This document shows, one piece after another, positions 26,552-45,443 of a stretch of DNA of 56,650 nucleotides. The stretch is from Eubacteriales bacterium (lineage in GTDB: Bacteria > Bacillota > Clostridia > Oscillospirales > CAG-272), in NCBI GenBank assembly GCA_045591885.1, contig JAZNTT010000029.1, forward strand, positions 1 through 56,650. The letters run 5' to 3'. A program made the translations under genes and the position numbers. The notes under the pieces are model-generated. The model had not been told where the DNA came from. It was given only the letters and a program-made list of their open reading frames with translations, and did no database searches. Every line of letters begins with the position of its first letter. Within the stretch, counting starts at the first letter, position 1.

Positions 26552-26583
26552 AAATCAGGCGATCACTCGCCTGATTTTCTTTT
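26551..26583. terminator. Bidirectional intrinsic terminator
   Basis: AAAATCAGGCGA-TCAC-TCGCCTGATTTT. Confidence 0.85.
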
Positions 26584-28573: not shown

Positions 28574-28593
28574 ATTTTTTCCTCTTATTGCGT

Positions 28594-29895: not shown

Positions 29896-29919
29896 AAAAA
29901 AACGCCCGAGGGCGTTTTT
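29896..29919 (-). terminator. Terminator of the glycosyltransferase operon
   Basis: AAAAAAACGCCC-GA-GGGCGTTTTT. Confidence 0.75.
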
Positions 29920-30908
29920 CACAGATTATTAAGCTCGTCGTAGCGCTTTACCGTCACGTATTTGCGATAATAGGAATTAAGAACACCAAACGGCAGAATA
30001 AGGCTCAGATAAACTATCTTCTGTTTAGGTCCGAACTTTTCGCATTTCGGCGCTAAGAGCATTACGGGAAGAAGCTTAAAATAGTACTTATATAAGCGCA
30101 TACCGACGCCCAGCTCCTTTTTGAGCACTCGCATTTTCGCGACACATCCCAAAAGCTGTTCAAGCGCCGTGCCGTAAGCCGTACAAGCTCCCGTTTTTTT
30201 GTAAATATCTCTTATATGTTCTCTGTAAATATCAAGGATGCAGAGCTTTTTGAGCGAAAATTTCGCATTCATTATCGTCGGAAGCTCGGGATTTTTTCTG
30301 TAATAATAAAGCTTGGAGCGATTGAATGCCACCTTGCTTATTCTTTCAAGAACATGCGGGGCAATATGAGTGTCCTCATAATAGATCCCCTCCTTAAAGC
30401 GAAGCGAAGAAAATACCTCTTTTTTATAAAGCTTGCCCCACGCCTCCGTTCGTTCGTACACGCTCTCTGTGAGAAGAAGCTCACGCGCGTCGGCAACCGT
30501 TACGCCATCAAAGATCTCCGCTTTCTTTATATCGTCATCGTTTTGGAATATCTCGTACATACAGACCGACATATCGGCATCTGACTTAATGAGCGTATCA
30601 TACAAAACCGAAACAGTCTCGGGAGCGATCATATCGTCGCTGTCAACAAAGGTAATATATTCCCCCGCAGCGTGCTCGATTCCCGTGTTTCGCGCCGCAG
30701 AAAGACCGCCGTTTTCGCGGTGAACGACCTTGATTCGACCGTCTGTCTTTGCAAGCTCCTCGCACATCGCGGGACAAGAATCGGGGCTTCCGTCATTGAC
30801 AAGTATTACCTCAATATCGGTATACGTCTGCGCAAGTATACTGTTCACGCAAGCGCAAAGCGTTTTTTCAACCTTATATACCGGCACGATAACGCTGATA
30901 AGCGGCAT
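29919..30908 (-). CDS. Glycosyltransferase family 2
   Basis: ISVIVPVY, NDGSPD, NGGLSAARN, FVDSDD, WGKLY, YED. Confidence 0.93.
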   Translation of the reverse strand: MPLISVIVPVYKVEKTLCACVNSILAQTYTDIEVILVNDGSPDSCPAMCEELAKTDGRIKVVHRENGGLSAARNTGIEHAAGEYITFVDSDDMIAPETVSVLYDTLIKSDADMSVCMYEIFQNDDDIKKAEIFDGVTVADARELLLTESVYERTEAWGKLYKKEVFSSLRFKEGIYYEDTHIAPHVLERISKVAFNRSKLYYYRKNPELPTIMNAKFSLKKLCILDIYREHIRDIYKKTGACTAYGTALEQLLGCVAKMRVLKKELGVGMRLYKYYFKLLPVMLLAPKCEKFGPKQKIVYLSLILPFGVLNSYYRKYVTVKRYDELNNL

Positions 30909-30912
30909 ACTC

Positions 30913-31683
30913 TTACCCCCTCTTGATCTTATTCTTAACGGCCTCAAACCGTTTTTCTCCGAGAAGCTTTATAAGTATCTTTCTCGGTATACGCAAATAC
31001 TTTTCACGTCTCAAATATCTGCGTCTTTCTTCGTCACACTCTCTCTCCGACTCGCTCTTCCATGATGCACTGAAGCGGTGGATCGTATACGTTCTTCTCG
31101 TTTTGCGGATCTTCCCCGTGACGTAATCCATGGGACAGAAATACTCGGTCGGGTATATTCTTGCGCCGCAAATCGTTTGAAGCTTTCCGTCGGACACAAG
31201 CCCAAGCTTTTTCAAAACCTTTGTGTTTCTCTCGGGACAGGGCGTAAGATCGAAGCTTCCGTCGGGCTGAACAAAATGTATTCCCTCGTAATCGTCCATC
31301 ATCGCTTTGAGAATATTATTTCCCCTTTCCGCGCCAAAACCGAGCCCGGTTGCAACATTAGTTTCGTTTTCGAAACCAAAAAACGCCGTATCCAGCAAGG
31401 ATTTATCTATCTTCTTTAGGACTTCAACATCGGTATCAAAGTAAACGCCGCCGTTTTCATATACGATCTTGAGCCGAACGTAGTCGGTAACGAACGCCCA
31501 TTTTTTGTTTTCGTACGCCTCTTTAACGTAATCGGGGCAGGAAAAAATATCAAAACTGCTCTCGTCCCAACGTATTATTTCAAAGTCGCTGCAATACTTT
31601 TCCCAGCTTTTAATACATTTGAGTGCTAACGGTGGAAGAGGATTGCCGCCGAACCAAATATAATGTATCTTTTTAGGTATCAT
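30913..31683 (-). CDS. Glycosyltransferase family 32 (OCH1-like, DxD)
   Basis: MIPKKIHY.WFG, WAFV.DY.RL, GG.Y.DTDVE. Confidence 0.92.
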   Translation of the reverse strand: MIPKKIHYIWFGGNPLPPLALKCIKSWEKYCSDFEIIRWDESSFDIFSCPDYVKEAYENKKWAFVTDYVRLKIVYENGGVYFDTDVEVLKKIDKSLLDTAFFGFENETNVATGLGFGAERGNNILKAMMDDYEGIHFVQPDGSFDLTPCPERNTKVLKKLGLVSDGKLQTICGARIYPTEYFCPMDYVTGKIRKTRRTYTIHRFSASWKSESERECDEERRRYLRREKYLRIPRKILIKLLGEKRFEAVKNKIKRG

Positions 31684-31684
31684 A

Positions 31685-32398
31685 TCAAGCTTCCGTCTTG
31701 AACAGCTTTTCCGCCTTCTCAAGATCGTCGAAATTGTCTATCTCATACCATCTTCCGACAAGAGTGCATGCCTTGAATTCAATAGTGCTCAAAACGTCGT
31801 TGAGCGCCACCTCGCTCCATTTGTTCAGTATCTTCTCGTCCTCTATATAATGTGCACAGCGATCGAAAAACGCCTTGCCTCCCTCGGGAGAGAATTTATA
31901 TACGTCAATAGAACAACCAAGAGCATCCGCGGAAGGGATCTGCTTTGAAATAGCAACAAGACGTCCGTCCTTTTCAACAACCTTCATAGACTCCTCTGAA
32001 TAGCTTCCGATGTCGGTAACGATCGCGTTTTCAGCTTCACACTCAATAAGCGCCTTAACTACCGATGCATCATAAAAAACGTCTGCGTTCATCATAAGAA
32101 ATTCGCATGATCCCACAGCATCTCTTGCTATGTATGCAGAGTACATATTGTTTGTCGTTGCGTAATCAACACTGTTGATAATACGAACGGAGGGATACTT
32201 TTCGGTAATTCTCTTTTCCAGTATCTCTGCTTTGTATCCGGAGACTACCGTTATGTCAGTGATACCGTTCAAAAGCAGGTTATCGATCTGGTTAAAAATT
32301 ATAGGAGTACCGTTCACAGGAACAAGCGCCTTGGGGCACTCATCGGTTATCGGAGCGAGTCTTGAGCCGAAACCTGCGGCAAGTATCAAAGCTTTCAT
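31685..32398 (-). CDS. Phosphocholine cytidylyltransferase (LicC)-like nucleotidyltransferase
   Basis: ILAAG.GSRL..IT...PK.L, GYK, Y..TNNMYS, W.EIDN..DL. Confidence 0.85.
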   Translation of the reverse strand: MKALILAAGFGSRLAPITDECPKALVPVNGTPIIFNQIDNLLLNGITDITVVSGYKAEILEKRITEKYPSVRIINSVDYATTNNMYSAYIARDAVGSCEFLMMNADVFYDASVVKALIECEAENAIVTDIGSYSEESMKVVEKDGRLVAISKQIPSADALGCSIDVYKFSPEGGKAFFDRCAHYIEDEKILNKWSEVALNDVLSTIEFKACTLVGRWYEIDNFDDLEKAEKLFKTEA

Positions 32399-33621
32399 TT
32401 TTTCTTTCCCTTTCTGACATGAAAAATATAATTGCAAAGATCATAGCTGAAGCAATGCTCCTTCGCATCGGTGCCGTTCACATAAGCTGAAACTGCCGCG
32501 CGATCGGCAGAATAACCGTCGTCGCCTTCTTCAACAGCAGATATAAACGACAAAAGATCGTCATAGCTGTACATCCTCGGTCCCGGCATATATTTCAGCG
32601 GATCATCAAGAAGATATCCTCTTGAATAATCGCAGAAATTATTCATAAAAAATGCAACGGGCTTATCAATAAGTAAAAAGTCGAACACGACGGACGAAAC
32701 ATCCGTGATAAGCGCATCGCAGCATCCGAGAAATTCGTAAAGTAAAACGTCCTTATAGAACAGTTCTCTATTTTGAACGTAATGAACGTTGTGAAGCTTC
32801 GGCATCTTCATAAGATCGGTTCTTTGAAGCGGATGTATCTTAACTATAAGATGAGTTCTCGCGTCAAAGAGCGCCTTATCGAGTTTAAGCAGCTCGTCCT
32901 CGTTTTCGATAACGCTAAGCGAATAAGGGTCTACCGTTTCGCTATCAGTCCACGTTGCAGACTGCCTGAAAGTCGGCATACACATTATGACCTTTTCAGA
33001 CGCGTATTCCGGAATGATTTTCTTCAGTATTTCATCTTTTTTTGAGGCATTAACGGCAAGGAGATCGTTTCTCGGTTGACCGCAAATAAAGGTTTTTTCC
33101 TCTTCGCATCCCCAAAACCGCGTATACCAGCTCAAAATGTTTTCCGCCGGCACTGCAAGAAGGTCTATGCATGTCGAATCGAAATTACCGGATGCCTGTT
33201 TTATCGGTGTTCCGTGTCCGATATGTATAACTGTTTGTTCATTTCTGCGTTTTCTGAACCAATACGGATGAGAAAAAACAAACCATTTTGCTGTCGCCAA
33301 ATAATATTTCAAGCGAAGCTTATCTCGCAGATTATAAGAGATTCTGCTTACAAAAACCACGTTCTTGGCCTTATGATGCTTTTTGCAGAAATCAACGTCT
33401 TTAACTATCCACACGAGCCTATATTTTCTGTTATATTTATTTTTCAAAAGATATTCATAAAAAGCACGAGGATTATCATCCATATCGCTCTCACATTCGA
33501 GAACGATAGTGTTTTTCAGCGGCAGACAAAGAGAAATTCCGTACCAAATCGGTTCGATCGAAGCCTTAATGCCATAATGCGAAACATAAGAAAATGCTTT
33601 TTTAATTTTTTTAAACATCAT
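32395..33621 (-). CDS. CDP-glycerol/ribitol phosphotransferase (TagF/TagB family)
   Basis: GHGTPIK, GQPRND, MPTFR, KIHP, LITD.SS..FDF. Confidence 0.88.
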   Translation of the reverse strand: MMFKKIKKAFSYVSHYGIKASIEPIWYGISLCLPLKNTIVLECESDMDDNPRAFYEYLLKNKYNRKYRLVWIVKDVDFCKKHHKAKNVVFVSRISYNLRDKLRLKYYLATAKWFVFSHPYWFRKRRNEQTVIHIGHGTPIKQASGNFDSTCIDLLAVPAENILSWYTRFWGCEEEKTFICGQPRNDLLAVNASKKDEILKKIIPEYASEKVIMCMPTFRQSATWTDSETVDPYSLSVIENEDELLKLDKALFDARTHLIVKIHPLQRTDLMKMPKLHNVHYVQNRELFYKDVLLYEFLGCCDALITDVSSVVFDFLLIDKPVAFFMNNFCDYSRGYLLDDPLKYMPGPRMYSYDDLLSFISAVEEGDDGYSADRAAVSAYVNGTDAKEHCFSYDLCNYIFHVRKGKKK

Positions 33622-34892
33622 TCCGGTTCCCACTCGGTTAGTTGAGGCATAGCCTGGTCGCCCCAAGCGTGTCTGACCCATTCGAAATTATAAAACTCGG
33701 ATTTAGCGTATATATTAAACGCAGCAGCGAGCGGAACGAAGTCGTGCCTTGCCTGCCCCCCCGCTCCATTCGGCTGGAACGCCACGATCTGCATAATGTA
33801 CGGACCGGGAGCAATACGAGAGGTGTCCAGATCGAAATTCTTAACGGTAACGGTATTCGGATGCGCTTCAAATTCGGCAGTTGTGGCAGTTGCAACAGGA
33901 GTTCTGTCGCGGAGAAGAACAGTCATTCTGAAAGCGAGATTCTCAATATAATCACTGCATTCATAGGTAAGCGAGAATCTGAAATGACTTCCGAAGCGAA
34001 TCGTATTCTCCTCGGCTTCAACGTCAAGAGCAGTCATCTTTATCTTTCCTGTTATCCAGGGATCGATTCCGCGTTTGGTAAAGTCATTATGCCGCTGAAT
34101 TATTCCGTCTTCGCCGCCCATATAGATGGCAATACCTTCGTCAACGTCGCCGTCAAATATCATTCGTCCCTTGGAAAGAACGATAACTCTGTCGCAAAGC
34201 TGACGAATGGTATTCATGTTATGAGAAACGTAAAGGACAGTCCTTCCGTCCTCTTTTGCGGTCTGACGCATTTTGGTAAGGCACTTTTTCTGGAACGCCA
34301 TATCGCCGACGGCAAGGACCTCGTCCATAATAACTATCTCGGAATCGAGATGCGCGGCGACCGAGAACGCAAGCTTAACGTACATTCCCGACGAATATCT
34401 CTTAACGGGGGTATCAATAAACTGCCTCACCTCCGAAAAATCGATTATCTCCTCGATCTTCTCGTCAATCTCTTTTTTCGACATACCGAGGATCGCGCCG
34501 TTCATATAAATATTTTCGCGTCCCGTAAGCTCAGGATGGAAGCCGGTTCCGACCTCAAGCATCGAGGCAACGCGTCCGTTAAGGGATATAGTACCCTTAC
34601 TCGGTCCGGTGATTCGGGTTATGAGCTTCAGAAGCGTGCTCTTCCCTGCGCCGTTCTTACCGATGATTCCGACAGCCTCACCCTTTTTGACCTCAAACGA
34701 TATTCCGTCGAGTGCCATAAACTTTTCGTTCGATACAGGGCGGCTCTTTTGACCGATTTTTGAAGTCGGATCCTCTTTTTTGCGAAGGCGCGCCGAGAGA
34801 CGCTGAAGATCCTCTTTGAGGGTTGTACCTCCAATGGCACCGAGGCGGTACTGCTTCGAAACATTTTCACAGCGAATCATTATTTCACTCAC
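33618..34892 (-). CDS. wzt: Polysaccharide ABC transporter ATP-binding subunit with C-terminal Wzt_C-like domain
   Basis: GKNGAGKST, PVKRYSSGM, DEVLAVGD, VSH; about 160-aa C-terminal extension; GTG start. Confidence 0.92.
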   Translation of the reverse strand: MSEIMIRCENVSKQYRLGAIGGTTLKEDLQRLSARLRKKEDPTSKIGQKSRPVSNEKFMALDGISFEVKKGEAVGIIGKNGAGKSTLLKLITRITGPSKGTISLNGRVASMLEVGTGFHPELTGRENIYMNGAILGMSKKEIDEKIEEIIDFSEVRQFIDTPVKRYSSGMYVKLAFSVAAHLDSEIVIMDEVLAVGDMAFQKKCLTKMRQTAKEDGRTVLYVSHNMNTIRQLCDRVIVLSKGRMIFDGDVDEGIAIYMGGEDGIIQRHNDFTKRGIDPWITGKIKMTALDVEAEENTIRFGSHFRFSLTYECSDYIENLAFRMTVLLRDRTPVATATTAEFEAHPNTVTVKNFDLDTSRIAPGPYIMQIVAFQPNGAGGQARHDFVPLAAAFNIYAKSEFYNFEWVRHAWGDQAMPQLTEWEPE

Positions 34893-34906
34893 GGTATTCC
34901 GCCTCC

Positions 34907-35788
34907 TTAAACTGTATCCGCAAAGTTCTTTTCAATGCGGTTAAATAGCAAAAGTCCGAAGAACGCGATAACAAGCGTGACCGCCCAACCGACAAAATAA
35001 TACACGGGATCAAAGTATCCGGCACCGAAAACTCCGTACCTGAACGAAAGGATAGCGGGAGTAACGGGATTGAGGTTATAAAGACCTATGTACTTTGCGG
35101 GAATGAGAAGCAGACCGTATGCAACGGGAGTCGCGTACTGCCAGAGGTTAAGACCAAAGCCGACAAGCATCGAAAGATCGCGGTATTTGGTCGTAAGCGC
35201 GGAAATGATTATTCCAATACCCGTTGAAAGTATCATAAGCTGTATTATCGACAGCGGAACGAAGATGAAATGCCACGAGAAAATGAAATCAGCACTTCCC
35301 CCAATAATACAGCCGATGTACAAAACGATAAACATTACAAGCTGAATACCGAACGATATGAGGTTCGATATTGCCGTCGAGATCGGCATAGCGATTCGCG
35401 GAAAATAAACCTTTCCCATAATGTGCGCGTTAGCCAGGAACGTATAGCTCGTCGCCGAAACGACCGATGAGAAATAGCCCCAAAGGATCGTGCCGCTCAT
35501 ATAGAAAAGGAACGACGGCACGTTCGGTGCCGGATTCGCATCTGCGGTCGAAAGCTTCGCCAAGGTACCGAATATAACTGTATAAACAACCGTTGTGAAA
35601 AGCGGCTGAATTATTGCCCAAAGCGGGCCGAGAATCGTCTGCTTGTACTTCGACACAAAGTCTCTTTTAACGAAAAGAAGTATCATGTCCTTGTATTTAA
35701 GTGCTTCTCTCAGCTTCAGGTCAAATACTTTTTTGTCTGCCGAAACGACCGTCTTGAAGGCGGTATCAGACTTCTTGTTTTCTGTCAT
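34907..35788 (-). CDS. wzm: Polysaccharide ABC transporter permease
   Basis: KRDF..KYKQTILG.LW.IIQP, KVYFPR, YRD, TPV.Y, NP. Confidence 0.92.
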   Translation of the reverse strand: MTENKKSDTAFKTVVSADKKVFDLKLREALKYKDMILLFVKRDFVSKYKQTILGPLWAIIQPLFTTVVYTVIFGTLAKLSTADANPAPNVPSFLFYMSGTILWGYFSSVVSATSYTFLANAHIMGKVYFPRIAMPISTAISNLISFGIQLVMFIVLYIGCIIGGSADFIFSWHFIFVPLSIIQLMILSTGIGIIISALTTKYRDLSMLVGFGLNLWQYATPVAYGLLLIPAKYIGLYNLNPVTPAILSFRYGVFGAGYFDPVYYFVGWAVTLVIAFFGLLLFNRIEKNFADTV

Positions 35789-35808
35789 TTTTATGCCTTT
35801 CACTCTGT

Positions 35809-36771
35809 TTATTTCGTCTTTATGGGCGCGATAAGGTTTTTGTAACCCCATATTCCAAGCACCGAGAACAGGAAATACTTTATCTTGTCCTTTGCAGATA
35901 AAAGATTGTTACCAAGCGCTTTGCGCTGAGTACGGAACTCTTTTTTAACGAATTTTTGAGTTCCTTGCGGAACGCCGTCACCGACTGCGGTAAGAATTAC
36001 GTCGAGAATATGCTTACGGGTCTTATATTCAAGCTCGCTGTCGCCCACCTGCATATAAAAATCGATATGATCGTTCAAGATTTCTATAAGAAGCTTAAAT
36101 CGCTCCGGGCTGGGAGACAGGTGCATTATACTTCCGTTTCTTTGACGGTAAAGGCAACCGCAATAGGGAATTATCGCAAATTTGGAAACGCCGTAATATA
36201 GGCGCGGCATAAGATGTCTGTCCTCGTAAACGATACCCTCTTTGTATCTCTTGCCCTCATATACTTCTCTTCTTGTGAGCTTTCCCCAAGGCGTGGCGAT
36301 CATCGCGTTCGCACCGATCTCGTTGTCCTGAGATACAAGTGCATCTCGTCCGCTTACGATCCATTCCTGAGCGGGGCACTTATCGTAAATCGGCTCGCCC
36401 TCCTCGGTTATGAATCGACAGCCGCAGGCAACTACCTCCGCACCGGTCTCGATCATCTTGTTATAAAGCGTTTCGATCATGTCGGGGACAATAACGTCAT
36501 CACTGTCGACCGAAACGATAAGCTCGCCCGTTACGTTATCAAGTCCTGTGTTGCGGGCACGGCTTACTCCGCCGTGATCGTTTCGCACGATCTTTATTCT
36601 GCCGTCCTCCGACGCAAGCTTTTGACAGATATCAAGTGTGCGGTCGGAGCTTCCGTCGTCAATTATTATTATTTCGAGATTCTTATAAGTCTGTTCCCTT
36701 ACGCTGTTTACGCATTCGGCAATAAACCGTTCCACGTTATATGCGGGAATTATGACCGATACCTTTTCCAT
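35809..36771 (-). CDS. Glycosyltransferase family 2
   Basis: VSVIIPAYN, DDGS, VDSDD, PWGKL, YED. Confidence 0.93.
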   Translation of the reverse strand: MEKVSVIIPAYNVERFIAECVNSVREQTYKNLEIIIIDDGSSDRTLDICQKLASEDGRIKIVRNDHGGVSRARNTGLDNVTGELIVSVDSDDVIVPDMIETLYNKMIETGAEVVACGCRFITEEGEPIYDKCPAQEWIVSGRDALVSQDNEIGANAMIATPWGKLTRREVYEGKRYKEGIVYEDRHLMPRLYYGVSKFAIIPYCGCLYRQRNGSIMHLSPSPERFKLLIEILNDHIDFYMQVGDSELEYKTRKHILDVILTAVGDGVPQGTQKFVKKEFRTQRKALGNNLLSAKDKIKYFLFSVLGIWGYKNLIAPIKTK

Positions 36772-36775
36772 ACTG

Positions 36776-37732
36776 TCACACCTTTTTTCTTATTGAACGA
36801 TAGCCCTTTACGCCAAGCAAGCGGAAAAGAAAATACTTGAACTTTTCCTTTGCGTTCGGCGCATGCTTTTTCAAAAATTTATAGTGCTTCTTAAACTCGT
36901 TTACCGAATATTTATCAAGCCCCTCGGGAATCTCTCTTTTGCGGCAAGCCATAAGGATCTTGTCCGCGGCGTTCCTATGCACGTAGTATTCAAGGACGGT
37001 GTCGCCCTTTTCACGGTAAAATTCCGCGTGGTCAGCCCAGATATCGAAGAAGAACTTATACTCTCTTTCGCCCTCTTTGCGATGCATTATGCTGCCCTCT
37101 CTCTGGCGGTACTTGTAGCCGCAATAAGGGATTATAACGAACCTCTGAACGTCAAAATACAGGTACGGCATCAGGTGCATATCCTCGTATACAACGCCTT
37201 CCTTATAGCGTTTGCCGTCGTAGACCGCTTTTTTTGCAAGCTTTCCCCACGGTGCGGCAATCGCGGCGTTTACACCGACTCCGCTGTCTCGCGCTTCAAG
37301 TGCATCGCGTCCGCTTAAAACACGCTCGGCGGGCGGAGGATAATCGCCGATATGCCCGCCGTCCTCACTCATATACGAGCATCCGCAGGCAACAACGTCG
37401 GCATTATGCTCTTTTAGCTTGTTATAAAGCGTTTCTATCATATCAGGGGCAATAACGTCGTCGCTGTCGACCGACATTATATAGCCGCCGGTTGCATTGT
37501 CAAGACCTGCGTTGCGCGCACGGCTCACCCCGCCGTGATTATTCTGCAATACCTTTATTCTGTCGTCTTCAACGGCAATCCTTTGACAGATATCAAGCGT
37601 GCCGTCGGAGCTTCCGTCGTCAACTATAATTATTTCGAGGTTTTTATAGGTCTGCTCCCTTACACTGTTAACGCACTCGGCAATAAACCGTTCAACGTTA
37701 TACGCGGGAATTATGACCGATACCTTTTCCAT
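36776..37732 (-). CDS. Glycosyltransferase family 2 (tandem paralog of the previous gene)
   Basis: First ~37 aa identical to 35809..36771; same motifs. Confidence 0.93.
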   Translation of the reverse strand: MEKVSVIIPAYNVERFIAECVNSVREQTYKNLEIIIVDDGSSDGTLDICQRIAVEDDRIKVLQNNHGGVSRARNAGLDNATGGYIMSVDSDDVIAPDMIETLYNKLKEHNADVVACGCSYMSEDGGHIGDYPPPAERVLSGRDALEARDSGVGVNAAIAAPWGKLAKKAVYDGKRYKEGVVYEDMHLMPYLYFDVQRFVIIPYCGYKYRQREGSIMHRKEGEREYKFFFDIWADHAEFYREKGDTVLEYYVHRNAADKILMACRKREIPEGLDKYSVNEFKKHYKFLKKHAPNAKEKFKYFLFRLLGVKGYRSIRKKV

Positions 37733-37733
37733 A

Positions 37734-38927
37734 TCATTCCTCATCAATAAACGAATATATCTTCTCGACCTCGCTTGAATTTCCGTAATCTGTGCTCATA
37801 CAGTTTTCAGAGAGCATCATCATAAGCTCGCCGTCGAAGAGAAGCGCAGCAATGCCCTCTGCACAAGCGCGGTTTTCAAGCGGAACGATGATTCCGTCAA
37901 AGCCGTCCTTAAGCTGGCTTTGTGCAGTCGCAAAATCGGTAATGACAACCGGCTTGCCGAGGATCTGTGCCTCAAGCACCGCTACCGCCTTGCCCTCATA
38001 CAGGCTCGGCTGAGCGTATACGTCGCAGGCATTTATATAAGGGTACGGATTCGCCTTAGACCCAAGGAGAATGACCGTTTCCTCCATACCGTACTTTGCA
38101 ATATTTGCTCTTATCTTTTCTTCTTCCGTTCCGCCGCCAAGTATGTACCATCGGAAATCGGCGCCGAGCTTCTTCATCTCTGACGCTATTATCGGAACAG
38201 ACACAAAATTTTTCTGCTCGTGAAGCCGTCCGCATGATACGATAACGGGCTTGTCCGTCTTTATCTCGTCCTGGCTTTCAAGAGCCGACTTGCGGATAGC
38301 ATCGGGGGAATAAATATTGTCAATACGAACAAGCTTGTCTCCGAGTGTCGGGAACTTCGTCAAGAACGCCTTACTTACCGACTCGGATATTGACACGATT
38401 CCGTCGTACTTTTCCCACATTCTCGTCTCCGACTCGGTGTCAAAATCGAGGAAGGAGTAGTCCGTGTGTATCCACGCAAGCTTCTTTTTACCGACACACT
38501 TTTCGATTCCGAAATAGTGAGGGGTCAGAAAGCTTATAACGAGATCGTATTCGGTTTCTGAGATCTTCGGCATATATTTTTTCGTGTACTTATGACTGTA
38601 TTCGACCTCAACGCCGACGGGATTGTTCAAGCTGTTCTTTTTCGTAAAGGCTTTTGCGCGCATTTTGCCGACAAACCGTCCGAACGCAACCCCGAAGCAG
38701 CCCTTTTTGATGACCTCACCGATCGGCACGCCGAGGCAGGTGTACTCCTTGATCTCGGGGAGCAGATTCACGCCATCGGGTATAAGTCCGAAAAGCTCTC
38801 CGTCGTGCTTCATCAGAAACAGGTCGACCTGATATTCACTTTTATCAAAAGCGGAAAGAAGCCCAATAAGCGCTCTTTCCGCGCCGCCGATATACATCGC
38901 GTGCGAAAGAACCAATACCTTTTTCAT
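37734..38927 (-). CDS. Glycosyltransferase family 4
   Basis: GGAERAL, AWIHTDY, GRL..QK, PS.YEG....LEA. Confidence 0.92.
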   Translation of the reverse strand: MKKVLVLSHAMYIGGAERALIGLLSAFDKSEYQVDLFLMKHDGELFGLIPDGVNLLPEIKEYTCLGVPIGEVIKKGCFGVAFGRFVGKMRAKAFTKKNSLNNPVGVEVEYSHKYTKKYMPKISETEYDLVISFLTPHYFGIEKCVGKKKLAWIHTDYSFLDFDTESETRMWEKYDGIVSISESVSKAFLTKFPTLGDKLVRIDNIYSPDAIRKSALESQDEIKTDKPVIVSCGRLHEQKNFVSVPIIASEMKKLGADFRWYILGGGTEEEKIRANIAKYGMEETVILLGSKANPYPYINACDVYAQPSLYEGKAVAVLEAQILGKPVVITDFATAQSQLKDGFDGIIVPLENRACAEGIAALLFDGELMMMLSENCMSTDYGNSSEVEKIYSFIDEE

Positions 38928-39652
38928 TTCTTTTTCCTTTTCAGAAAGTCGAGGCAATGCTCGCCGAAGGTTCGGCGGAGCTTGCGCGTTATCTTAACGC
39001 GGAATCGGACCCATCCGTTTATCCAGCTCGACGAATAGTGATGTATCGAAATTGTCTTGTCAGTGATCGTTAAGATCCCCGTTGAGTAGAACATCGGACA
39101 CATGTATTCCGACGGCAAAATTCTTATATTGCCGGGCAAAAGCTGATCCTTGTTTTCCTTCTCGAAGCCGTATTTGTAGAGCGAACGGGTATTACGAACG
39201 GGACATGGCGTAAGGTCGAAGCTTCCGTCCTCTTTTACGAATGTTTGACCCTCGTAATCGTCCATCATCGTCTTTACTGCCGCATTTCCCTGCTCGGCAC
39301 CGAAGCCGAGACCCGACGCGACGGTTATTCCGTCCGACTCGATTGCGAAAAACGCCTCGTGTTCAAGCAGAAAATCTATATTCTTTATAATCTCAACGTC
39401 GGTATCGAGATAGATGCCGCCGTTTTCATATATAATTTTCAAGCGCGCGTAGTCGCTGACGAACGCCCACTTTTTCATTTCAAACGCCTGTCTTACATAA
39501 AGCGGACAAGACTCAATGTCAAAATTTGTCTCATTCCAGAGAATGATCTCATAGTCGGGGCAATATTTTTTCCAGCTTCGCAGGCACTTTTTACCGAGAT
39601 GCGGCAGCGGATTACCGCCAAACCATACGTAATGAATCTTCTTCGGTATCAT
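38924..39652 (-). CDS. Glycosyltransferase family 32
   Basis: MIPKKIHY.WFG, SDYARL, GGIYLDTDVE. Confidence 0.92.
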   Translation of the reverse strand: MIPKKIHYVWFGGNPLPHLGKKCLRSWKKYCPDYEIILWNETNFDIESCPLYVRQAFEMKKWAFVSDYARLKIIYENGGIYLDTDVEIIKNIDFLLEHEAFFAIESDGITVASGLGFGAEQGNAAVKTMMDDYEGQTFVKEDGSFDLTPCPVRNTRSLYKYGFEKENKDQLLPGNIRILPSEYMCPMFYSTGILTITDKTISIHHYSSSWINGWVRFRVKITRKLRRTFGEHCLDFLKRKKK

Positions 39653-40722
39653 TTTATTACCTCGGTAGTTTTTCTGACGACCTCGTTTCGGTCAAAGTTC
39701 GCTTCAACGTGCGCCCGTCCTCGTTTGCCCATCTTTTCTCTTTCGTCTCTATTCATAAGGCAAACGCGCTTCATCGCTTCATAAAGCAACTCACCGTCGC
39801 GAACGGGGCAAACAAATCCGCTTTCACCCGAGACGACTGCCTCGCGGCAACCGTAAACGTCGGTCGTCACAAGCACGCGCCCGATCGCCGCGCCCTCGAG
39901 AAGCACGTTCGACATTCCCTCGTGATAAGACGGAAGAACAACCGCATCACACGATTTGTAAAGCGATGCCACGTCGGTTATGAAGCCGAGATAGTTAATA
40001 ACTCCCTTTTCGTGAAGCTCGTTTACTGTCTGCTCATAGGAATCCTCAAATATTCCCGCAACGTGTAATTCAAATTTGTCACCAAACTCGCTTTTCAGCT
40101 TCTTCGCGGCGTAAAACAGCTCGTCCACGCCCTTTTCCTTCATGATTCGACTGACGAACGCAAATTTTACAGTATCGCCCTCGGGCATAGGAGTGAGCGG
40201 AAAAGCATCAAGATCGACCCCTGCGCCGCTGAACACAACGGCTTGATCCCTTTTAATTATCTTCTTGCTTACGAAGTGGTCGCGGTTACCCTCGTTTTCA
40301 AAGAAAACGGCTTTCGCCTTTTTCGCCGCCCAACGGTACATGGTCGAAACGACGGTCTTAAGTCCCTTGCGGTAAAAGGCGCTTCCAAGTCCCTGAACGT
40401 GCAAATAATACGGCACGCCAAGCTTTCGGCAGGCGTAACCGCCGTAGATATTCGGCTTGATCGAGTAGGTTATCACCGCATCGGGATCGACCTCTTTGAT
40501 GATTTTCTTGTACTGCTTGTAAAGCTTCAGGTCGCTTATCGGATTGATCCCGCGTCTGTCAACGTCGGCATAAACTATATCGCAGCCGAGCTTTTTAAGC
40601 TCCTCTTCTCCGCCGTGAGGCACACATGCGGTTACGGATGCATTCTTCAGAAGCTCACGCAAAAGCGCTCCGCGGTAAATAACGAGCATTCCGCCGTTAT
40701 TAGATATTATAAGATAACGCAT
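39649..40722 (-). CDS. Glycosyltransferase family 4 (CapM-like)
   Basis: RRGINP..DL, KPNIYG, GLGS, GVD, KEKG, PSYHEGMSNVLLE; AAGGAG RBS. Confidence 0.92.
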   Translation of the reverse strand: MRYLIISNNGGMLVIYRGALLRELLKNASVTACVPHGGEEELKKLGCDIVYADVDRRGINPISDLKLYKQYKKIIKEVDPDAVITYSIKPNIYGGYACRKLGVPYYLHVQGLGSAFYRKGLKTVVSTMYRWAAKKAKAVFFENEGNRDHFVSKKIIKRDQAVVFSGAGVDLDAFPLTPMPEGDTVKFAFVSRIMKEKGVDELFYAAKKLKSEFGDKFELHVAGIFEDSYEQTVNELHEKGVINYLGFITDVASLYKSCDAVVLPSYHEGMSNVLLEGAAIGRVLVTTDVYGCREAVVSGESGFVCPVRDGELLYEAMKRVCLMNRDEREKMGKRGRAHVEANFDRNEVVRKTTEVIK

Positions 40723-40771
40723 TATAGCTGAACACTCCTTTCTTACATCACACTTGTAGGCATACATTGTT

Positions 40772-40800
40772 ATTATATAATATAAAAACTATATTGTCAA
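40772..40800 (-). promoter_or_regulatory. Sigma-A promoter of the glycopolymer operon
   Basis: TTGACA-17 nt-TATAAT, perfect consensus. Confidence 0.8.
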
Positions 40801-40854
40801 GACGCGCTGCGCACACAATAATAATGTAACATTGTTTTGTAACTACACACCTCA

Positions 40855-40894
40855 GGGACCCCCAAGACTCCTTGCATTCGCTTTGGGGAACCTC
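40855..40894 (+). repeat. ~40-bp CCCCAA...GGGGAACC repeat, copy 1
   Basis: Similar to 45463-45503 and 54577-54616. Confidence 0.7.
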
Positions 40895-40966
40895 TACCAA
40901 ATGCGAGTCTTGAGACCATCTCTGTTCGTCCGATTTTTCTGATTCATTCTTTACTCTCTATCATTT

Positions 40967-40996
40967 AAAAAACCCACCTGCAAGTCAGGTGGGTTT
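40967..40996 (-). terminator. Intrinsic terminator after the nucleotidyltransferase gene
   Basis: AAAAAACCCACCTG-CAAGT-CAGGTGGGTTT. Confidence 0.85.
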
Positions 40997-40998
40997 CA

Positions 40999-42162
40999 TC
41001 ACTGTTCATCTTTCTTTTGATTTGATTTTGCGATCATTTTTATTATCTTGACCGTCTTTCCGAGTCTGTTAAAGAGAATATCAAACGCCCTGTATATCCA
41101 TCCGAACGGGAGAAGCCACCATCTTGAAAAAAACGGATTATACTTCTTCATATACTCAACTCCCGGGAAAATCCTGCTAATAAGATAACCGAATTTACCC
41201 TTTTTGCGAATACCCTTCTCGACTCTGCCCTCACCGGATATATTGAACATATTAAGCATAAACGCCTGCAGAAGCGTCCGCATCTCGTCCGAAAGCTTAC
41301 AGATATCAAAGCTCTCGACCTCGTCGAATATCTCGCGCACAAGCTCTCGGCAATCGCAGTCGAATTTCCAAACGTCAAGCTTGCTTAACTCGTTTTCTAT
41401 ATATGCAAAATCAAGATTCGGCTTCTTATTCAGATATACGAACACGTCAATAAGATGACGCGCACCAATGCTCTCGCTGAAAGCAAAATGCTTGTATGCA
41501 TGCAAAACGATATATATATAGAAATCCTCATCCGTAAAGTGATAGCCGAAATTACTATCGTCATTCTTTACAAGGCGATCCTTCACGTCACTATAATAGC
41601 TTCTGAACACGGGCCTTTTTTCTCCGTAAAGCTCAACGTGCATCTCGTAATTGAATATAGGCTTTTTTTGATATACGTCGTGAAATCCTTCGTTATAATG
41701 CTCTATTGAATATCCCCGAGACACGAAATAATCTCTTACATACTCTCGATACGCACCGTCAAAAAAAATATCGTTATCCGACATCTGACGGAGTCCAAGC
41801 TTCGGATACATATCCTTCAAAATTGCACCCTTGAGCGGCATATACCATATACCTTTTTCTTCGAGATGTGCCAAAATGACCTCGCGCTCAGTGTCGAGCA
41901 GAATATTCTTGCGGACAGACATCGCACGCGCCTGAGCGAAAGCGTCAAGAACGGGCGCATTTTCATCCGTTTTTTCAATACCCAGCTTGTCGATTCCCTC
42001 GCTGACGAGCGAGGCAAGACCGTTATACGCGCTTATCTTGTATATCCCCGCGAGCGACACAGTGCTTGTATCGACCTTTTCACCGCCGCGCCCCGTAAGT
42101 GCGCAGACGCAAAGCCTAAGCATATCGCAGGCAGCGTTTATTCTTTTATTTTCCTTATCCAT
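40999..42162 (-). CDS. Uncharacterised nucleotidyltransferase family protein (NTP_transf_5-like)
   Basis: PLKG..L..MYP..GLRQMSDNDI, YEMH..L, H..KH...G.R.L.D. Confidence 0.88.
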   Translation of the reverse strand: MDKENKRINAACDMLRLCVCALTGRGGEKVDTSTVSLAGIYKISAYNGLASLVSEGIDKLGIEKTDENAPVLDAFAQARAMSVRKNILLDTEREVILAHLEEKGIWYMPLKGAILKDMYPKLGLRQMSDNDIFFDGAYREYVRDYFVSRGYSIEHYNEGFHDVYQKKPIFNYEMHVELYGEKRPVFRSYYSDVKDRLVKNDDSNFGYHFTDEDFYIYIVLHAYKHFAFSESIGARHLIDVFVYLNKKPNLDFAYIENELSKLDVWKFDCDCRELVREIFDEVESFDICKLSDEMRTLLQAFMLNMFNISGEGRVEKGIRKKGKFGYLISRIFPGVEYMKKYNPFFSRWWLLPFGWIYRAFDILFNRLGKTVKIIKMIAKSNQKKDEQ

Positions 42163-42602
42163 CTTTTGATCTTCCGTCCCGCTCTTATAATAAAGTGCCT
42201 CAGGTGATAGGTCGTATTCCAGAGAACACTGTAAAAACGATATGCCCTGTTCCTATTAGCATCGATCATCTTACCTTTTCTGTAAATATGCGTCACAACG
42301 CCTATCATTCTTCCGTTTTCAACACGCTCAAGAAAATACGTGTTGTCACCGCGCATAAGGCAATAGCCGTCCATCACCTTGACACATCTGTGCAAAACGT
42401 GTGTCCCATCAGGGCGTATATAAAGCACGATATCGTATTTCTTGACACCGTCCTTTATCGGTGACAGCATAACGTGCGTCCGACGTTCAAACAGCAGCGG
42501 CTGCATCGAGCAACCCACGGTAAAAAACGTCACACTTCTGCCGTTTTCAAGCTCCTCTTTCAGCGTCGTATGCTTCGTTTCGGGGGTGAAATTTTCTGTC
42601 AT
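42138..42602 (-). CDS. S24/S26-family peptidase-like protein without membrane anchor
   Basis: G.SM.PLL (catalytic Ser), DIVLY.R, VLHR, RGDN. Confidence 0.85.
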   Translation of the reverse strand: MTENFTPETKHTTLKEELENGRSVTFFTVGCSMQPLLFERRTHVMLSPIKDGVKKYDIVLYIRPDGTHVLHRCVKVMDGYCLMRGDNTYFLERVENGRMIGVVTHIYRKGKMIDANRNRAYRFYSVLWNTTYHLRHFIIRAGRKIKRWIRKIKE

Positions 42603-42865
42603 ATATCAAGCACACCCGCATCCTTGAGTTGAGAAATAAATGACGTAGCAGCAGTGGCGGCAGTTGCTTCGTCAATTCCGTATTCTGCAATAAGCGCGGA
42701 AATCACGTTATTTTCGTCAGTTTCCTTTTCGAGCCGGCGAAAAATGAACGCACCCGTATCGTTCAAACGTATCATTCCGCGAAATTTTGTCGTCATCTTT
42801 CCGATAGCGACAACTACGTTCTCTCCGCCAACCGAGTGTAAAACAAATCCATCCTTGATTTTCAT
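42599..42865 (-). CDS. PqqD-family / RiPP recognition element (RRE) protein
   Basis: MKIKDGFVL..VGGE.VVV...F.G.I.LN.TG.FI..L...L..EY.ID...A....F...L...G.L. Confidence 0.9.
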   Translation of the reverse strand: MKIKDGFVLHSVGGENVVVAIGKMTTKFRGMIRLNDTGAFIFRRLEKETDENNVISALIAEYGIDEATAATAATSFISQLKDAGVLDI

Positions 42866-42866
42866 A

Positions 42867-43571
42867 TCAGTTCCCCTTCATTCCGTTATACGCGACGCGT
42901 GCAGCGTCGTCGTCCATATTGCAGTAAAGGTTATATATCGGTACGTTTTTGATTATCTTGTCCATCATCGCCATAAAGGCGGCAAGATCTGCCCCGTTTT
43001 GCGGCAACAGCACTTGATGGAATATCTGTCCGACGGCATCATGCGAGGTCGCAGGCGCGATCTCATTTTTTTCGCCTCTGCGAAGTATACACATTCCGCG
43101 AACAGGAGCACTCATATTGCAGCCGAGAAGCTCCTTGCCGCGCCACGGCGTACCGTGAGCTGTCAAAACTCCGTCTTTATAAGTAAAATAGGGCTTGTCA
43201 CCGTTAAGAACAACAGCGCGGTCGCCAAACACCTTTTGCCATAAGCTAATATGTGTCGACTTTCCAACACCGCTCTTTGCCATAAAGACGAATGCCTCGC
43301 CGTCTACAGTGACTACCGCCGAATGTATTAGCATAACACCGTACTTCACGAGTGCTCGCGTCGCGGCGCGGTGAATACAGGTTCCCTCGCATATAGCGAG
43401 CGGAAACTCTCCGTTAGTCAGCTTGTTTTCCGCCTCGATCTCCTCGTCGGTAGCCGAGACAGTAATAATCGGCGTCTCATCCGTCAGATATTCGTCACAT
43501 ATTGCGCGAATATGCCCGTATTTGTGTATAACGCGGACGGGAACACCCGCCAAAGATACGCAAAGCTCCAT
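42867..43571 (-). CDS. HPr kinase-like P-loop protein
   Basis: IHSAVV, Walker A AKSGVGKSTH, LNGDKP, GTPW.GKE; TGTTATAAT extended -10 upstream. Confidence 0.8.
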   Translation of the reverse strand: MELCVSLAGVPVRVIHKYGHIRAICDEYLTDETPIITVSATDEEIEAENKLTNGEFPLAICEGTCIHRAATRALVKYGVMLIHSAVVTVDGEAFVFMAKSGVGKSTHISLWQKVFGDRAVVLNGDKPYFTYKDGVLTAHGTPWRGKELLGCNMSAPVRGMCILRRGEKNEIAPATSHDAVGQIFHQVLLPQNGADLAAFMAMMDKIIKNVPIYNLYCNMDDDAARVAYNGMKGN

Positions 43572-43651
43572 AATACCACCATTTTTTCATAGTTATACTT
43601 ATTATAACACAGCCGAATAAAATAAACAATAGCGAATTAAAAAATAAAGCA

Positions 43652-43682
43652 AAAAGCAAGAACGATCACTCGTTCTTGCTTT
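43652..43682 (-). terminator. Intrinsic terminator after the M23 peptidase gene
   Basis: AAAGCAAGAACGA-TCAC-TCGTTCTTGCTTT. Confidence 0.85.
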
Positions 43683-43688
43683 ATAACC

Positions 43689-45152
43689 TTAATTTTCCCA
43701 GGGCTTAGCGGAGGGGAGATAGTTTCTCGGATTAACGGGCTTGCCGTTGATCCGCACCTCAAAATGAACGTGAGGGCCGGTAACACGTCCCGTTGTACCC
43801 ATCGTTCCTATCATCTGTCCCTTGTAAACCTTATCGCCAACCTTGACGTCGATTCTGTCCATGTGTGCGTATCTGGTCTCAACGCCGTTTTCATGAGCGA
43901 TCTTAACAATTAGTCCGTATGTTCCGCTATACGAAGCGAAGGTTACGACTCCGCCGTCCGCAGCGTAAAGCGAAGTACCTCGTGCCGCCGCGATGTCGAT
44001 CGCCTTGTGGTATGCTCCCGCATCGTCAAGTCCTTCACGGTTAACACCGAATCCGGAGGTTATAACGAATCTGTCAAGAACAGGCCACATGAACGAGCCG
44101 GTCGGAGCAGTCGAAGGATAATTCTTAGTACCTACGATCATGATACGAGCAGTCGGTTCGGAAATTACGTTTGAGGAAACGAGAGTCTTCGAAACCTCAA
44201 CACCGTCTATATAAGCTATTTCGTATACGTTTTCGGCAATTCCGTTTTCGCCCGCGACAGTCACCTTGCTCTGTCCGATGTAAAGCTCGTCGGTCTCTAC
44301 GGTAATTGTATCGAAAGGAACGATCTCGGAATAAGTTTCTATAACGCAAGTCTTGAATTCAATTGAAGAATTAAGCTCACCGAGATTGAACGAGAAATCG
44401 AACTTGGGAAGCTCGGTCGCCGCCTCATTCTTAAGCATACCGAACGCAAAATTTTTATCTGCGTAGAGCAGATTAAGCGCTCCGTCCGCAGTCACTCTGT
44501 TCGAAGCGTCGCCGTCATCGGTCTCATCATGGTCGCTTACGTTAAGAATGGAACGGCAAAGCGTTTCGGGCTTCGTCACTCTGTCAGATCGGCAGATCTT
44601 CGACGTGATTGCAAAATCCGTCGTAAGCTCAACGAAATCAGCAACGTCGTCCTTTTCAAGAACGCTGTCTATAATGTGTTCTCTGAAATGCTCAACAACC
44701 TGCTCTGCTTCGGAATATGTAGCGCAGAAGCCGATCTCAATACCCTTCATTGATATGCAATATGCACGGACGTAATCGGTTAAACATTCCTTGTAAAGGA
44801 TCTCCGCACACTCGCTCGCATTCACTTTCTTAGCGCTCGAAAGCATAAAGGAGCAGGTTATTTTCATGTCGGTTCTGTCGGATATACCGTTTTCAACGTG
44901 AAGCTTTTCAAGAAGCGCAAGAGCGCGGTTGAACTCGCTTCGGCTTCCGACCTTGCAAACCGCCTCACCGTCGACGTAAACAACGCCCGACGTACCCGCG
45001 GAAACTATAGCGGCACTTGAACCGAGAAGAATTGCGATAGCAGACACCGCCGCAATGATCCTGCCGTTGCGCGTTTTTATCGCATTTCCAAGAAACGTAC
45101 AGACGCCGCTCAGCTTTTTATTCAGCTTTTTGAGTATGGCGCGAAGGTCCAT
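43689..45152 (-). CDS. M23-family peptidoglycan DD-metalloendopeptidase with G5 domain
   Basis: G5-like segment (G.NG...Y.DG.EV...VGTK); HKAIDIA, YAHM, PHVHFEVR; AAAGGAG RBS. Confidence 0.9.
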   Translation of the reverse strand: MDLRAILKKLNKKLSGVCTFLGNAIKTRNGRIIAAVSAIAILLGSSAAIVSAGTSGVVYVDGEAVCKVGSRSEFNRALALLEKLHVENGISDRTDMKITCSFMLSSAKKVNASECAEILYKECLTDYVRAYCISMKGIEIGFCATYSEAEQVVEHFREHIIDSVLEKDDVADFVELTTDFAITSKICRSDRVTKPETLCRSILNVSDHDETDDGDASNRVTADGALNLLYADKNFAFGMLKNEAATELPKFDFSFNLGELNSSIEFKTCVIETYSEIVPFDTITVETDELYIGQSKVTVAGENGIAENVYEIAYIDGVEVSKTLVSSNVISEPTARIMIVGTKNYPSTAPTGSFMWPVLDRFVITSGFGVNREGLDDAGAYHKAIDIAAARGTSLYAADGGVVTFASYSGTYGLIVKIAHENGVETRYAHMDRIDVKVGDKVYKGQMIGTMGTTGRVTGPHVHFEVRINGKPVNPRNYLPSAKPWEN

Positions 45153-45443
45153 TTCGGTGGTTCTCCTTTCGTAAAAATCATTTTCGCCAATTAACCCAAA
45201 TACTATCTTACCACAAAAAATACAAGAAATCAAGGTTTTTTGTGATTTTTGCTGATATGTCAGTATTTTACAGCCGATTTTAGCCGTTTTTATGCGTTAT
45301 ATTGAAGGATTTTCTCCGTTTTTGAACCTAAAATGAATTTTTCCCGTCAGCATGGATTGCTTCACATTTATATAATATGCGGCTTTTTAGAGCGCGTCAC
45401 CGACGGGCTTTTGCCGCCTGCATAAATACTTGCCGCGTTATTT

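Follow-up and report, generated by a model that had tools for sequence, protein, structure and literature searches.

A cassette of four genes on the minus strand of contig JAZNTT010000029.1 (positions 40999-43571), from the Eubacteriales bacterium assembly GCA_045591885.1 (Clostridia; Oscillospirales; CAG-272), probably represents the modification core of a pathway for peptides synthesized by ribosomes and modified after translation (RiPPs) of the linear polyphosphorylated peptide (LPP) type, acting in trans on short precursors dispersed over other contigs. The stretch analyzed, referred to as the window, comprises positions 1 to 56,650 of this contig, and the genome is a metagenome-assembled genome of 1.48 Mb in 93 contigs that is 87.6% complete. 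The LPP family has been described from the lppA-K-B-S-D-N cluster of Paenibacillus alginolyticus DSM5050 (Popov et al., Nat Commun 2026;17:6633, PMC13381572), in which lppA encodes a precursor with a YxxP leader, lppS a SipW-like type I signal peptidase and lppD an MsbA-like protein, with lppK, lppB and lppN as the other parts. The initial annotation of the cassette, made from the sequence alone, knew of no functional characterization of such a gene set; this statement is outdated, as lppK-B-S-D-N together with lppA have been characterized in P. alginolyticus (PMC13381572).

The gene set and the LPP chemistry are therefore already known, and what differs here is the multicopy precursors in trans on exoprotein operons, the Phe of the leader and the lack of an exporter. 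Published work describes LPPs mainly in Bacilli, and the present case would add a Clostridia genus in which the precursors have moved out of the cluster and multiplied. The main text of the LPP report contains none of the terms "Clostridi-", "FxxP", "in trans", "orphan", "phenylalanine" or "secreted", and the expression "linear polyphosphorylated peptides" was found in no other paper of the literature searched in full text.

The cassette and its predicted products

The open reading frame (ORF) list and coordinates of the window place four minus-strand ORFs in 40999-43571, in the gene order lppK-lppB-lppS-lppN, separated successively by a 1-nt gap, a 4-nt overlap and a 25-nt overlap. The cassette and its signals are as follows.

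43601..43629, minus strand: putative cassette promoter, TTGTTT, 17 nt, TG-extended TATAAT, with the extended -10 TGTTATAAT at 43609-43601 ahead of the first gene (read by eye; unlisted by the consensus scan)
42867..43571, minus strand: lppK-like gene, predicted HprK-fold P-loop kinase, 234 amino acids (aa) (motifs, model, Foldseek)
42599..42865, minus strand: lppB-like gene, discrete PqqD-type RiPP recognition element (RRE), 88 aa (Pfam PqqD)
42138..42602, minus strand: lppS-like gene, putative cytoplasmic Ser32-His71-Asp86 peptidase of signal-peptidase (Sec11/SipW) type, 154 aa (alignment, profile, model)
40999..42162, minus strand: lppN-like gene, NTP_transf_5 nucleotidyltransferase, 387 aa (Pfam PF14907)
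40967..40993, minus strand: intrinsic terminator after lppN, 8-bp GC-rich stem, 5-nt loop, T6 (by eye; unlisted by the scan)

ORF coordinates, -10 element and hairpin agree with the earlier description of an autonomous four-gene unit with its own promoter and terminator, the latter two being read by eye. The four protein identities proposed at that stage (HPrK-like kinase, PqqD/RRE protein, S26-like peptidase and NTP_transf_5-like enzyme) are likewise borne out by Pfam, alignments, profiles and models.

The peptidase has no match in Pfam or NCBIfam, and 2847 relatives were retrieved at E<=1e-3 by HMMER from 1.84 billion representatives. In a 50-sequence alignment, G30, S32, M33, P35, H71, R72, G85 and D86 are invariant, forming G-x-S-M-x-P, H-R and G-D motifs, and the derived profile matches SpsB, SEC11A and SEC11C (E 1e-3 to 2e-3) with the Ser, His and Asp aligned. 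The predicted model (predicted local distance difference test, pLDDT, 95.9) has a LexA/signal-peptidase fold, with a best Foldseek E of about 5e-3 and no match at or below 1e-3, and consists of a soluble beta-barrel with two C-terminal helices. The protein thus has the fold of the type I signal peptidases Sec11/SipW, and its catalytic Ser, His and Asp align with theirs, but at about 150 aa it lacks their N-terminal membrane anchor, no hydrophobic stretch being readable in the sequence ahead of Ser32; it is operon-linked, and at times fused, to an RRE, and its predicted substrates are cytoplasmic RiPP leaders rather than Sec signal peptides. Its gene adjoins the discrete RRE gene with the 4-nt overlap, an arrangement of SipW/Sec11-like Ser-His-Asp peptidase and RRE that is characteristic of LPP clusters. 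Natural fusions among metagenomic proteins, namely to PqqD (P0112, P0133), to NTP_transf_5 (P0027) and to an ABC (ATP-binding cassette) exporter (P0073), tie the parts of the cassette together. The peptidase-exporter fusion P0073 is analogous to the C39-peptidase PCAT (peptidase-containing ABC transporter) proteins.

The protein encoded by the first gene has no Pfam match and only sub-threshold NCBIfam matches (ScmC, 5.9e-6; HprK_rel_A, 1.4e-3). In a 44-sequence alignment, H83, a Walker A motif G103-K104-(S/T)-T106 and an N-D-D motif including N123 and D125 are invariant, and its AlphaFold2 model (pLDDT 97.2) matched HprK/P (1kkl_B) in Foldseek at E 4.1e-6, as well as the fold-related PEP carboxykinase. 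Motifs and model suggest an HprK-like kinase, with kinase activity as a prediction. The RRE matches Pfam PqqD at E 1.6e-15 and NCBIfam lasso_PqqD at 7.2e-9, the latter below its cut-off, and the closest sequence in the PDB is that of a lasso PqqD chaperone (9x90_B, E 0.008). The last protein matches NTP_transf_5 (PF14907) at E 2e-35, and a profile search of the genome found its gene in single copy; a sequence search of the PDB returned no relative of it, and a literature text search for NTP_transf_5 matched no paper. By motifs, model and Pfam, the cassette therefore contains both the HprK-like kinase and the NTP transferase (NTP_transf_5) expected of an LPP cluster.

Dispersed putative precursors with an F-x-x-P leader

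The flanks of the cassette contain no plausible short precursor ORF, and none was found anywhere in the 56.6-kb window, where the best leader-model score on the contig (C29) was 7.4 bits. A 40-aa ORF at 40797-40919 in the downstream flank was rejected as a precursor, having neither a ribosome-binding site nor a match to the leader model. A leader model was obtained from loci around 100 peptidase homologues (8 of the same genus, 12 from relatives and 80 from a class sample with about one per genus), annotated by local hidden Markov models (HMMs) and by Pfam on cluster representatives. Short ORFs beside these cassettes share a leader composed of aromatic-x-K-P, an acidic/hydrophobic stretch and then E-x-I-[A/S/T]; by iterated leader HMMs, such ORFs were found at 34 of the 100 loci, the class sample contributing 28 of its 80, and 24 of 37 class-sample precursors lie at most 400 nt upstream of the kinase gene. 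The threshold was set 2 bits over the best of 40 control loci, and seeds were removed by hand where they were regular-expression hits in L055, L111 or L137, lay more than 1000 nt from a cassette gene, or corresponded to one hit in L095.

The first leader HMM, built from Y-type leaders only, gave no precursor in the own genome (best E 2.2) or in five same-genus genomes (best E 0.37), and a loose regular-expression scan of the genome returned 65 ORFs, none convincing. With the second-round HMM, ORFs on contigs C25 and C32 scored 15.3 and 12.6 bits, compared with 8.4 bits for the next ORF of the genome and 8.8 bits for the best in the 40 control loci; after genus variants had been added, the scores were 38.4 (C25), 35.6 (C32) and 11.3 bits (C71), against 8.9 bits for the controls. 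The assembly accordingly holds at least three predicted precursors of 42-44 aa with an F-x-x-P leader, none of them on the contig of the cassette.

C25:9246-9374, minus strand: precursor (second-round leader HMM)
C32:1335-1466, plus strand: precursor (second-round leader HMM)
C71:21061-21192, minus strand: precursor, more divergent (leader HMM with genus variants)

All three ORFs have the aromatic-x-x-Pro leader and a small residue or Thr at -1 that are typical of LPP precursors, with Phe in place of Tyr, and six precursor sequences of the genus all share T22, S24 and a C-terminal N-P motif. The genome scan thereby upholds the earlier proposal of a leader-directed system with an unlinked peptide carrying a YxxP-type leader. 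The same precursor ORF immediately precedes the kinase gene in two loci of the genus (L040, L042) and comes after the large gene that follows lppN in three (L041, L042, L044); a precursor in the cluster or no more than about 5 kb away from it, lacking in the window, is found in four of the eight same-genus loci. All 27 precursor copies of the genus come with a GAAAGGAG ribosome-binding site, and each has an intrinsic terminator whose stem varies between copies through compensatory substitutions; among the 15 of these 27 ORFs with 43 codons, the variable sites number 13, 13 and 35 at the three codon positions, as expected of coding sequence.

Across the genus, the precursor HMM detected the ORF in 9 of 19 genomes, at 2-11 copies per genome. 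These nine are exactly the genomes with a close peptidase orthologue; the other ten, six without a peptidase match and four with a distant one only, gave none. As the genomes of the genus are kin, this co-occurrence (9/9 versus 0/10) counts as one pattern and not as nineteen independent trials. Many copies lie less than 300 nt from contig ends (e.g., G003:C33:77-205, C105:77-205 and G010:C12:68-196). The repeated module of precursor and terminator probably breaks short-read assemblies, and the copy numbers are therefore a floor. For genome mining, these results indicate that "orphan" RRE cassettes can have precursors in trans, which are found only with a family-specific leader model.

The co-folding of the RRE with the C25 precursor reached a score of 0.36, compared with 0.01 for the best of three controls, so that the interaction foreseen in the initial annotation received support, albeit weak, and the pass may show likeness only, because solved RRE-leader complexes exist. 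The runs share at least 85% of contacts, with a partner pLDDT of at least 49. The mark used was passed by 58 of 80 solved complexes and by 2 of 110 mismatched pairs; passes at or below 0.60 comprise just 7 of the 80 solved complexes, yet both of the passing mismatches.

Proposed mechanism

In P. alginolyticus, the leader Tyr is the main recognition determinant, LppK places up to four phosphates on core Ser3 when expressed in Bacillus subtilis, and LppS (S29/H68/D93) cuts the leader after T-1 in a reaction that requires LppB and to which F-3, E-2 and T-1 matter (PMC13381572). By homology to this system, the RRE of the present cassette would bind the N-terminal F-x-x-P leader, and the HprK-like kinase would put one or more phosphates on a Ser at the start of the core, for which the genus-invariant Ser24 is the candidate. 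The RRE may then offer the end of the leader, with a hydrophobic residue at -3 and Thr22 at -1, to the Ser-His-Asp peptidase, which would cut after Thr22. Finally, the NTP_transf_5 enzyme might add a further group to the phosphate, probably derived from a nucleotide or a sugar phosphate. A phosphoglucomutase/phosphomannomutase gene lies directly after lppN in the locus L132 (11390-12910), which hints at a sugar phosphate as the substrate of the NTP transferase. The final product of LPPs and their biological role are left open in the LPP report (PMC13381572).

Comparison with known peptide systems

The likeness to LPPs extends from the same enzymes in the same order (HprK-like kinase, RRE, SipW-like peptidase, NTP transferase) and the lack of a macrolactam cyclase to the aromatic-x-x-Pro leader, the Thr at -1 and the polysaccharide genes alongside. 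The differences are that two defining features, an MsbA-like exporter and a precursor in cis, are missing from the cassette, that the genus has 2-11 scattered precursor copies per genome at the 3' ends of large exoprotein operons, and that the host is a Clostridia metagenome-assembled genome whereas the published hosts are Bacilli.

Kinship with lasso-type systems such as paeninodin and pseudomycoidin, pointed out in the initial annotation, is also evident: a PqqD-type RRE (B1, recognizing a Y/WxxP leader), an HprK-like kinase that phosphorylates Ser and an NTP_transf_5-type nucleotidyltransferase are common to both. In contrast to those systems, no Asn-synthetase-like cyclase or transglutaminase-like B2 protease was identified in the window or genome, and leader removal is predicted to be carried out by a serine peptidase of the signal-peptidase fold. 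The own genome, at its 87.6% completeness, contains no Transglut_core3 match; of its Asn_synthase matches, the two strong ones are terminal on contigs C76 and C22 and the other two, on C89 and C19, are weak, and no macrolactam or lasso cyclase was identified in the window or genome, the neighbors of these Asn_synthase matches being unexamined. The set therefore has the composition expected for a linear product and not that of a lasso cluster with its cyclase C and B2 protease. The ORF scan of the flanks and the profile searches of the genome also agree with the earlier statement that no cyclase, radical SAM enzyme or precursor is present in cis.

In prochlorosin-type systems, one modifying enzyme serves many dispersed paralogous precursors that have a conserved leader and more variable cores. 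The present system resembles them in having one cassette and many unlinked precursors, and differs in that lanthionine formation is replaced by phosphorylation and that the precursors lie on exoprotein operons.

Elsewhere in the genome, a radical SAM/SPASM enzyme of 459 aa on contig C77 (L003:307-1686, minus strand) has a weak N-terminal PqqD/RRE match. This match was rejected as a second RRE of the cassette, as it is the N-terminal domain of an enzyme that probably belongs to a separate ranthipeptide/SCIFF-like system.

Several points weigh against assigning the cassette to the LPP type. The likeness to the P. alginolyticus cluster is one of gene set and description, and the mechanism would hold by homology. 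The leader aromatic is Phe here and Tyr in the published motif, and 2 more residues separate the Pro from the cleavage site. Deletion of LppN was without effect and its activity was undetectable in the heterologous system (PMC13381572). No LppD-like (MsbA-like) exporter occurs in the window, none of the eight genus loci has a cassette-linked exporter, and the best ABC exporter of the own genome scored 413 bits against an HMM of 40 cassette-linked exporters, the minimum of that family being 476 bits. The 9/9 versus 0/10 pattern may reflect a single clade, the co-folding support is weak, and the genome is incomplete (87.6%). The natural F-for-Y variant is of interest in its own right, as it concerns the leader position that the LPP report names as the specificity determinant (PMC13381572).

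Putative precursor genes at the ends of exoprotein operons

Every precursor gene closes an operon that encodes a large protein with a signal peptide. At 25 loci, 23 of the 27 precursor copies in the genus start 5-18 nt after the stop codon of a large same-strand ORF, and the remaining four lie at contig ends without upstream sequence. Eighteen of the large ORFs are complete, encode 830-2213 aa and have signal peptides, and five run off the contig. The upstream proteins fall into three unrelated C-terminal types, represented by 10, 7 and 4 of the 21 compared. The idea of one conserved partner domain among the large cassette-flanking proteins was dropped, as no single family emerged; they carry GDSL/MBG, LRR, dockerin, Cu_amine_oxidN1, DUF6528 and SASA domains. 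The order of large secreted protein, precursor and kinase also occurs in seven class-sample loci of other families.

As the precursor gene is the last in an exoprotein operon, the supply of peptide is tied to the expression of the exoprotein. This placement offers a testable lead to function, namely a coupling to secreted proteins. One could imagine that the phospho(glyco)peptide is a dedicated partner of the exoprotein, with one cassette serving 2-11 dispersed precursors, for example as a tether to the glycopolymer of the neighboring glycosyltransferase (GT)/Wzm/Wzt operon or as a co-released signal; we regard this specific role as unlikely. If true, it would give LPPs a role in exoprotein display.

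Alternative explanations

The cassette lies beside a glycopolymer operon, described by Pfam and NCBIfam as follows.

29919..40767, minus strand: neighboring glycopolymer operon (context), with GT4, GT-DXD, GT4, GT2, GT2, Wzm and Wzt
29919..40767, minus strand: remaining genes of the same operon, TagF-like, sugar-1-P nucleotidyltransferase, GT-DXD and GT2
40772..40800, minus strand: sigma-70 promoter of this downstream operon, TTGACA-17-TATAAT, 12/12 matches (scan; outside the cassette)

The annotation agrees that the cassette is immediately upstream of, and co-oriented with, the GT/Wzm/Wzt operon, and also that the latter is transcribed separately, a terminator and then a 12/12 sigma-70 promoter lying between the two. 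From this neighborhood it had been proposed that a peptide, once phosphorylated and sugar-primed by the cassette, is extended by the glycosyltransferases encoded next to it and exported by Wzm/Wzt as a peptide-primed surface glycopolymer. Cassette loci were compared with 40 control stretches from the same genomes for the presence of at least two glycan genes within about 10 kb. Such genes were found at 16 of 80 class-sample loci and 1 of 40 controls and, in matched genomes, at 12 of 35 and 1 of 35 (Fisher p 0.0013), and SLH proteins at 26 of 80 and 3 of 40; these figures are rough, because test loci supplied the seeds of 7 of the 12 glycan HMMs, so that the counts favor the test set, and because GT2/GT4 were detected in none of the 40 controls, an implausibly low result that hints at under-detection. 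This enrichment fits the remark that LPP clusters are often inside capsular polysaccharide loci of Bacilli, where neighboring genes might add modifications (PMC13381572), and a review ties the pseudomycoidin nucleotidyltransferase to glycosylation (PMC7533575); a link of LPPs to polysaccharides or biofilms is, in the former report, likewise put forward only as speculation. Further points in favor of peptide-primed glycan synthesis are the position of the TagF-like-containing operon directly downstream, the failure to find a dedicated exporter in the genome, the GT2 gene that follows the C25 precursor operon and the phosphoglucomutase gene after lppN in L132. Action of the glycosyltransferases on the peptide is not thereby shown, however. 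The GT operon follows the cassette only in the window and in one of eight other genus loci (2/9), four others having a large exoprotein gene and a precursor in its place, and 64 of the 80 class loci have fewer than two glycan genes nearby. Moreover, Wzm/Wzt systems export undecaprenyl-linked polymers and not peptides. The linkage claimed earlier thus stands as an enrichment at class level and fails within the genus, and the extension and export of the peptide by the neighboring enzymes is not sustained, given the separate promoter behind a terminator, the 2/9 genus loci and the fact that most class cassettes do not adjoin glycan genes. As the linkage is unconserved in the genus and the GT operon has its own promoter, peptide-primed synthesis is speculative, and we consider it improbable.

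The close spacing of precursors behind large secreted proteins in 23 of 27 cases (the 18 complete ones with signal peptides), the three unrelated C-terminal types and the recurrence of the same order in seven class loci of other families would also fit a scheme in which the cassette really acts on the large secreted proteins, or on how these are secreted or anchored, with the short ORFs as adaptors or partners, e.g., a phosphopeptide tether or regulator of the exoprotein. A physical link between peptide and protein is purely conjectural, however; RREs bind N-terminal leaders of short peptides, whereas the large proteins have ordinary signal peptides, and many other loci have a precursor without a large neighbor, which makes this scheme very unlikely. 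The lack of a precursor in cis, of an exporter and of a cyclase might instead indicate that a lasso or LPP cluster has lost these parts and left the cassette behind as an inactive remnant, but the ORFs are intact and keep every invariant catalytic residue, the cassette is conserved in eight other species of the genus with a peptidase identity of about 63-86%, and it co-occurs perfectly with 2-11 precursor copies per genome. Inactivity is therefore extremely unlikely, and an LPP-type modification core acting in trans remains the reading that we prefer.

Distribution and variation in Clostridia

The peptidase probe found matches in 28 of 61 related genomes, including eight genomes of the genus with orthologues about 63-86% identical, and the peptidase profile matched 147 of 399 scored class genomes in 85 of 219 genera at E<=1e-8 (two genomes unscored). 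The components detected at the 100 loci were as follows.

RRE: 82/100 loci
Kinase: 69/100 loci
MsbA-type ABC exporter, directly after the peptidase: 38/100 loci
NTP_transf_5: 27/100 loci
Radical SAM enzyme: 7/100 loci

The module of SipW-like peptidase, RRE and kinase is thus common in the Clostridia sample, with exporter, NTP transferase and radical SAM enzyme each present or not. Precursor cores are rich in Cys at loci with a radical SAM enzyme and free of Cys at the others. In seven loci from other Clostridia families (L119, L120 and L123-L127), the radical SAM gene lies between the RRE and kinase genes, together with Cys-rich precursors that have a YxKP leader, and this variant, which presumably yields thioether-bridged, phosphorylated peptides, sits inside CpsB/Bac_transf/Wzz capsule loci. 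Another arrangement, which recurs in a different family (L104-L106, L112, L129, L130 and others), has the order RRE, peptidase, ABC exporter, a 320-aa protein without a Pfam match, precursor, kinase, SLH-domain protein, Wzz and CpsD.

Neighboring features of the window

Upstream of the cassette lies an M23/G5 peptidase gene (43689-45233, by Pfam) with its own terminator.

43653..43682, minus strand: intrinsic terminator belonging to this M23/G5 gene, a stem of 13 pairs with a T run behind it (scan)

In the glycopolymer operon, the first glycosyltransferase ORF is listed from an ATG at 40767, just 5 nt past the -10 hexamer, and the likelier start is an ATG at about 40721 with AAAGGAG ahead of it. 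A palindromic intergenic repeat of about 35 nt (GGTTCCCCGAA ... TTTGGGGG) is present in 15 copies in the genome, three of them in the window (at about 40859, 45467 and 54580, minus strand) and 12 on other contigs; one is located after the cassette terminator and ahead of the GT promoter, another between the M23 and rsmI genes. Rfam at gathering thresholds gave zero matches in the window, repeat included, and the repeat looks like a REP (repetitive extragenic palindromic) element. Two surface protein genes (26582-29772) stand at the end of the glycopolymer operon, one product having He_PIG and a type I dockerin and the other fn3 and a C-terminal hydrophobic segment; this pair points to a cellulosome-like lifestyle.

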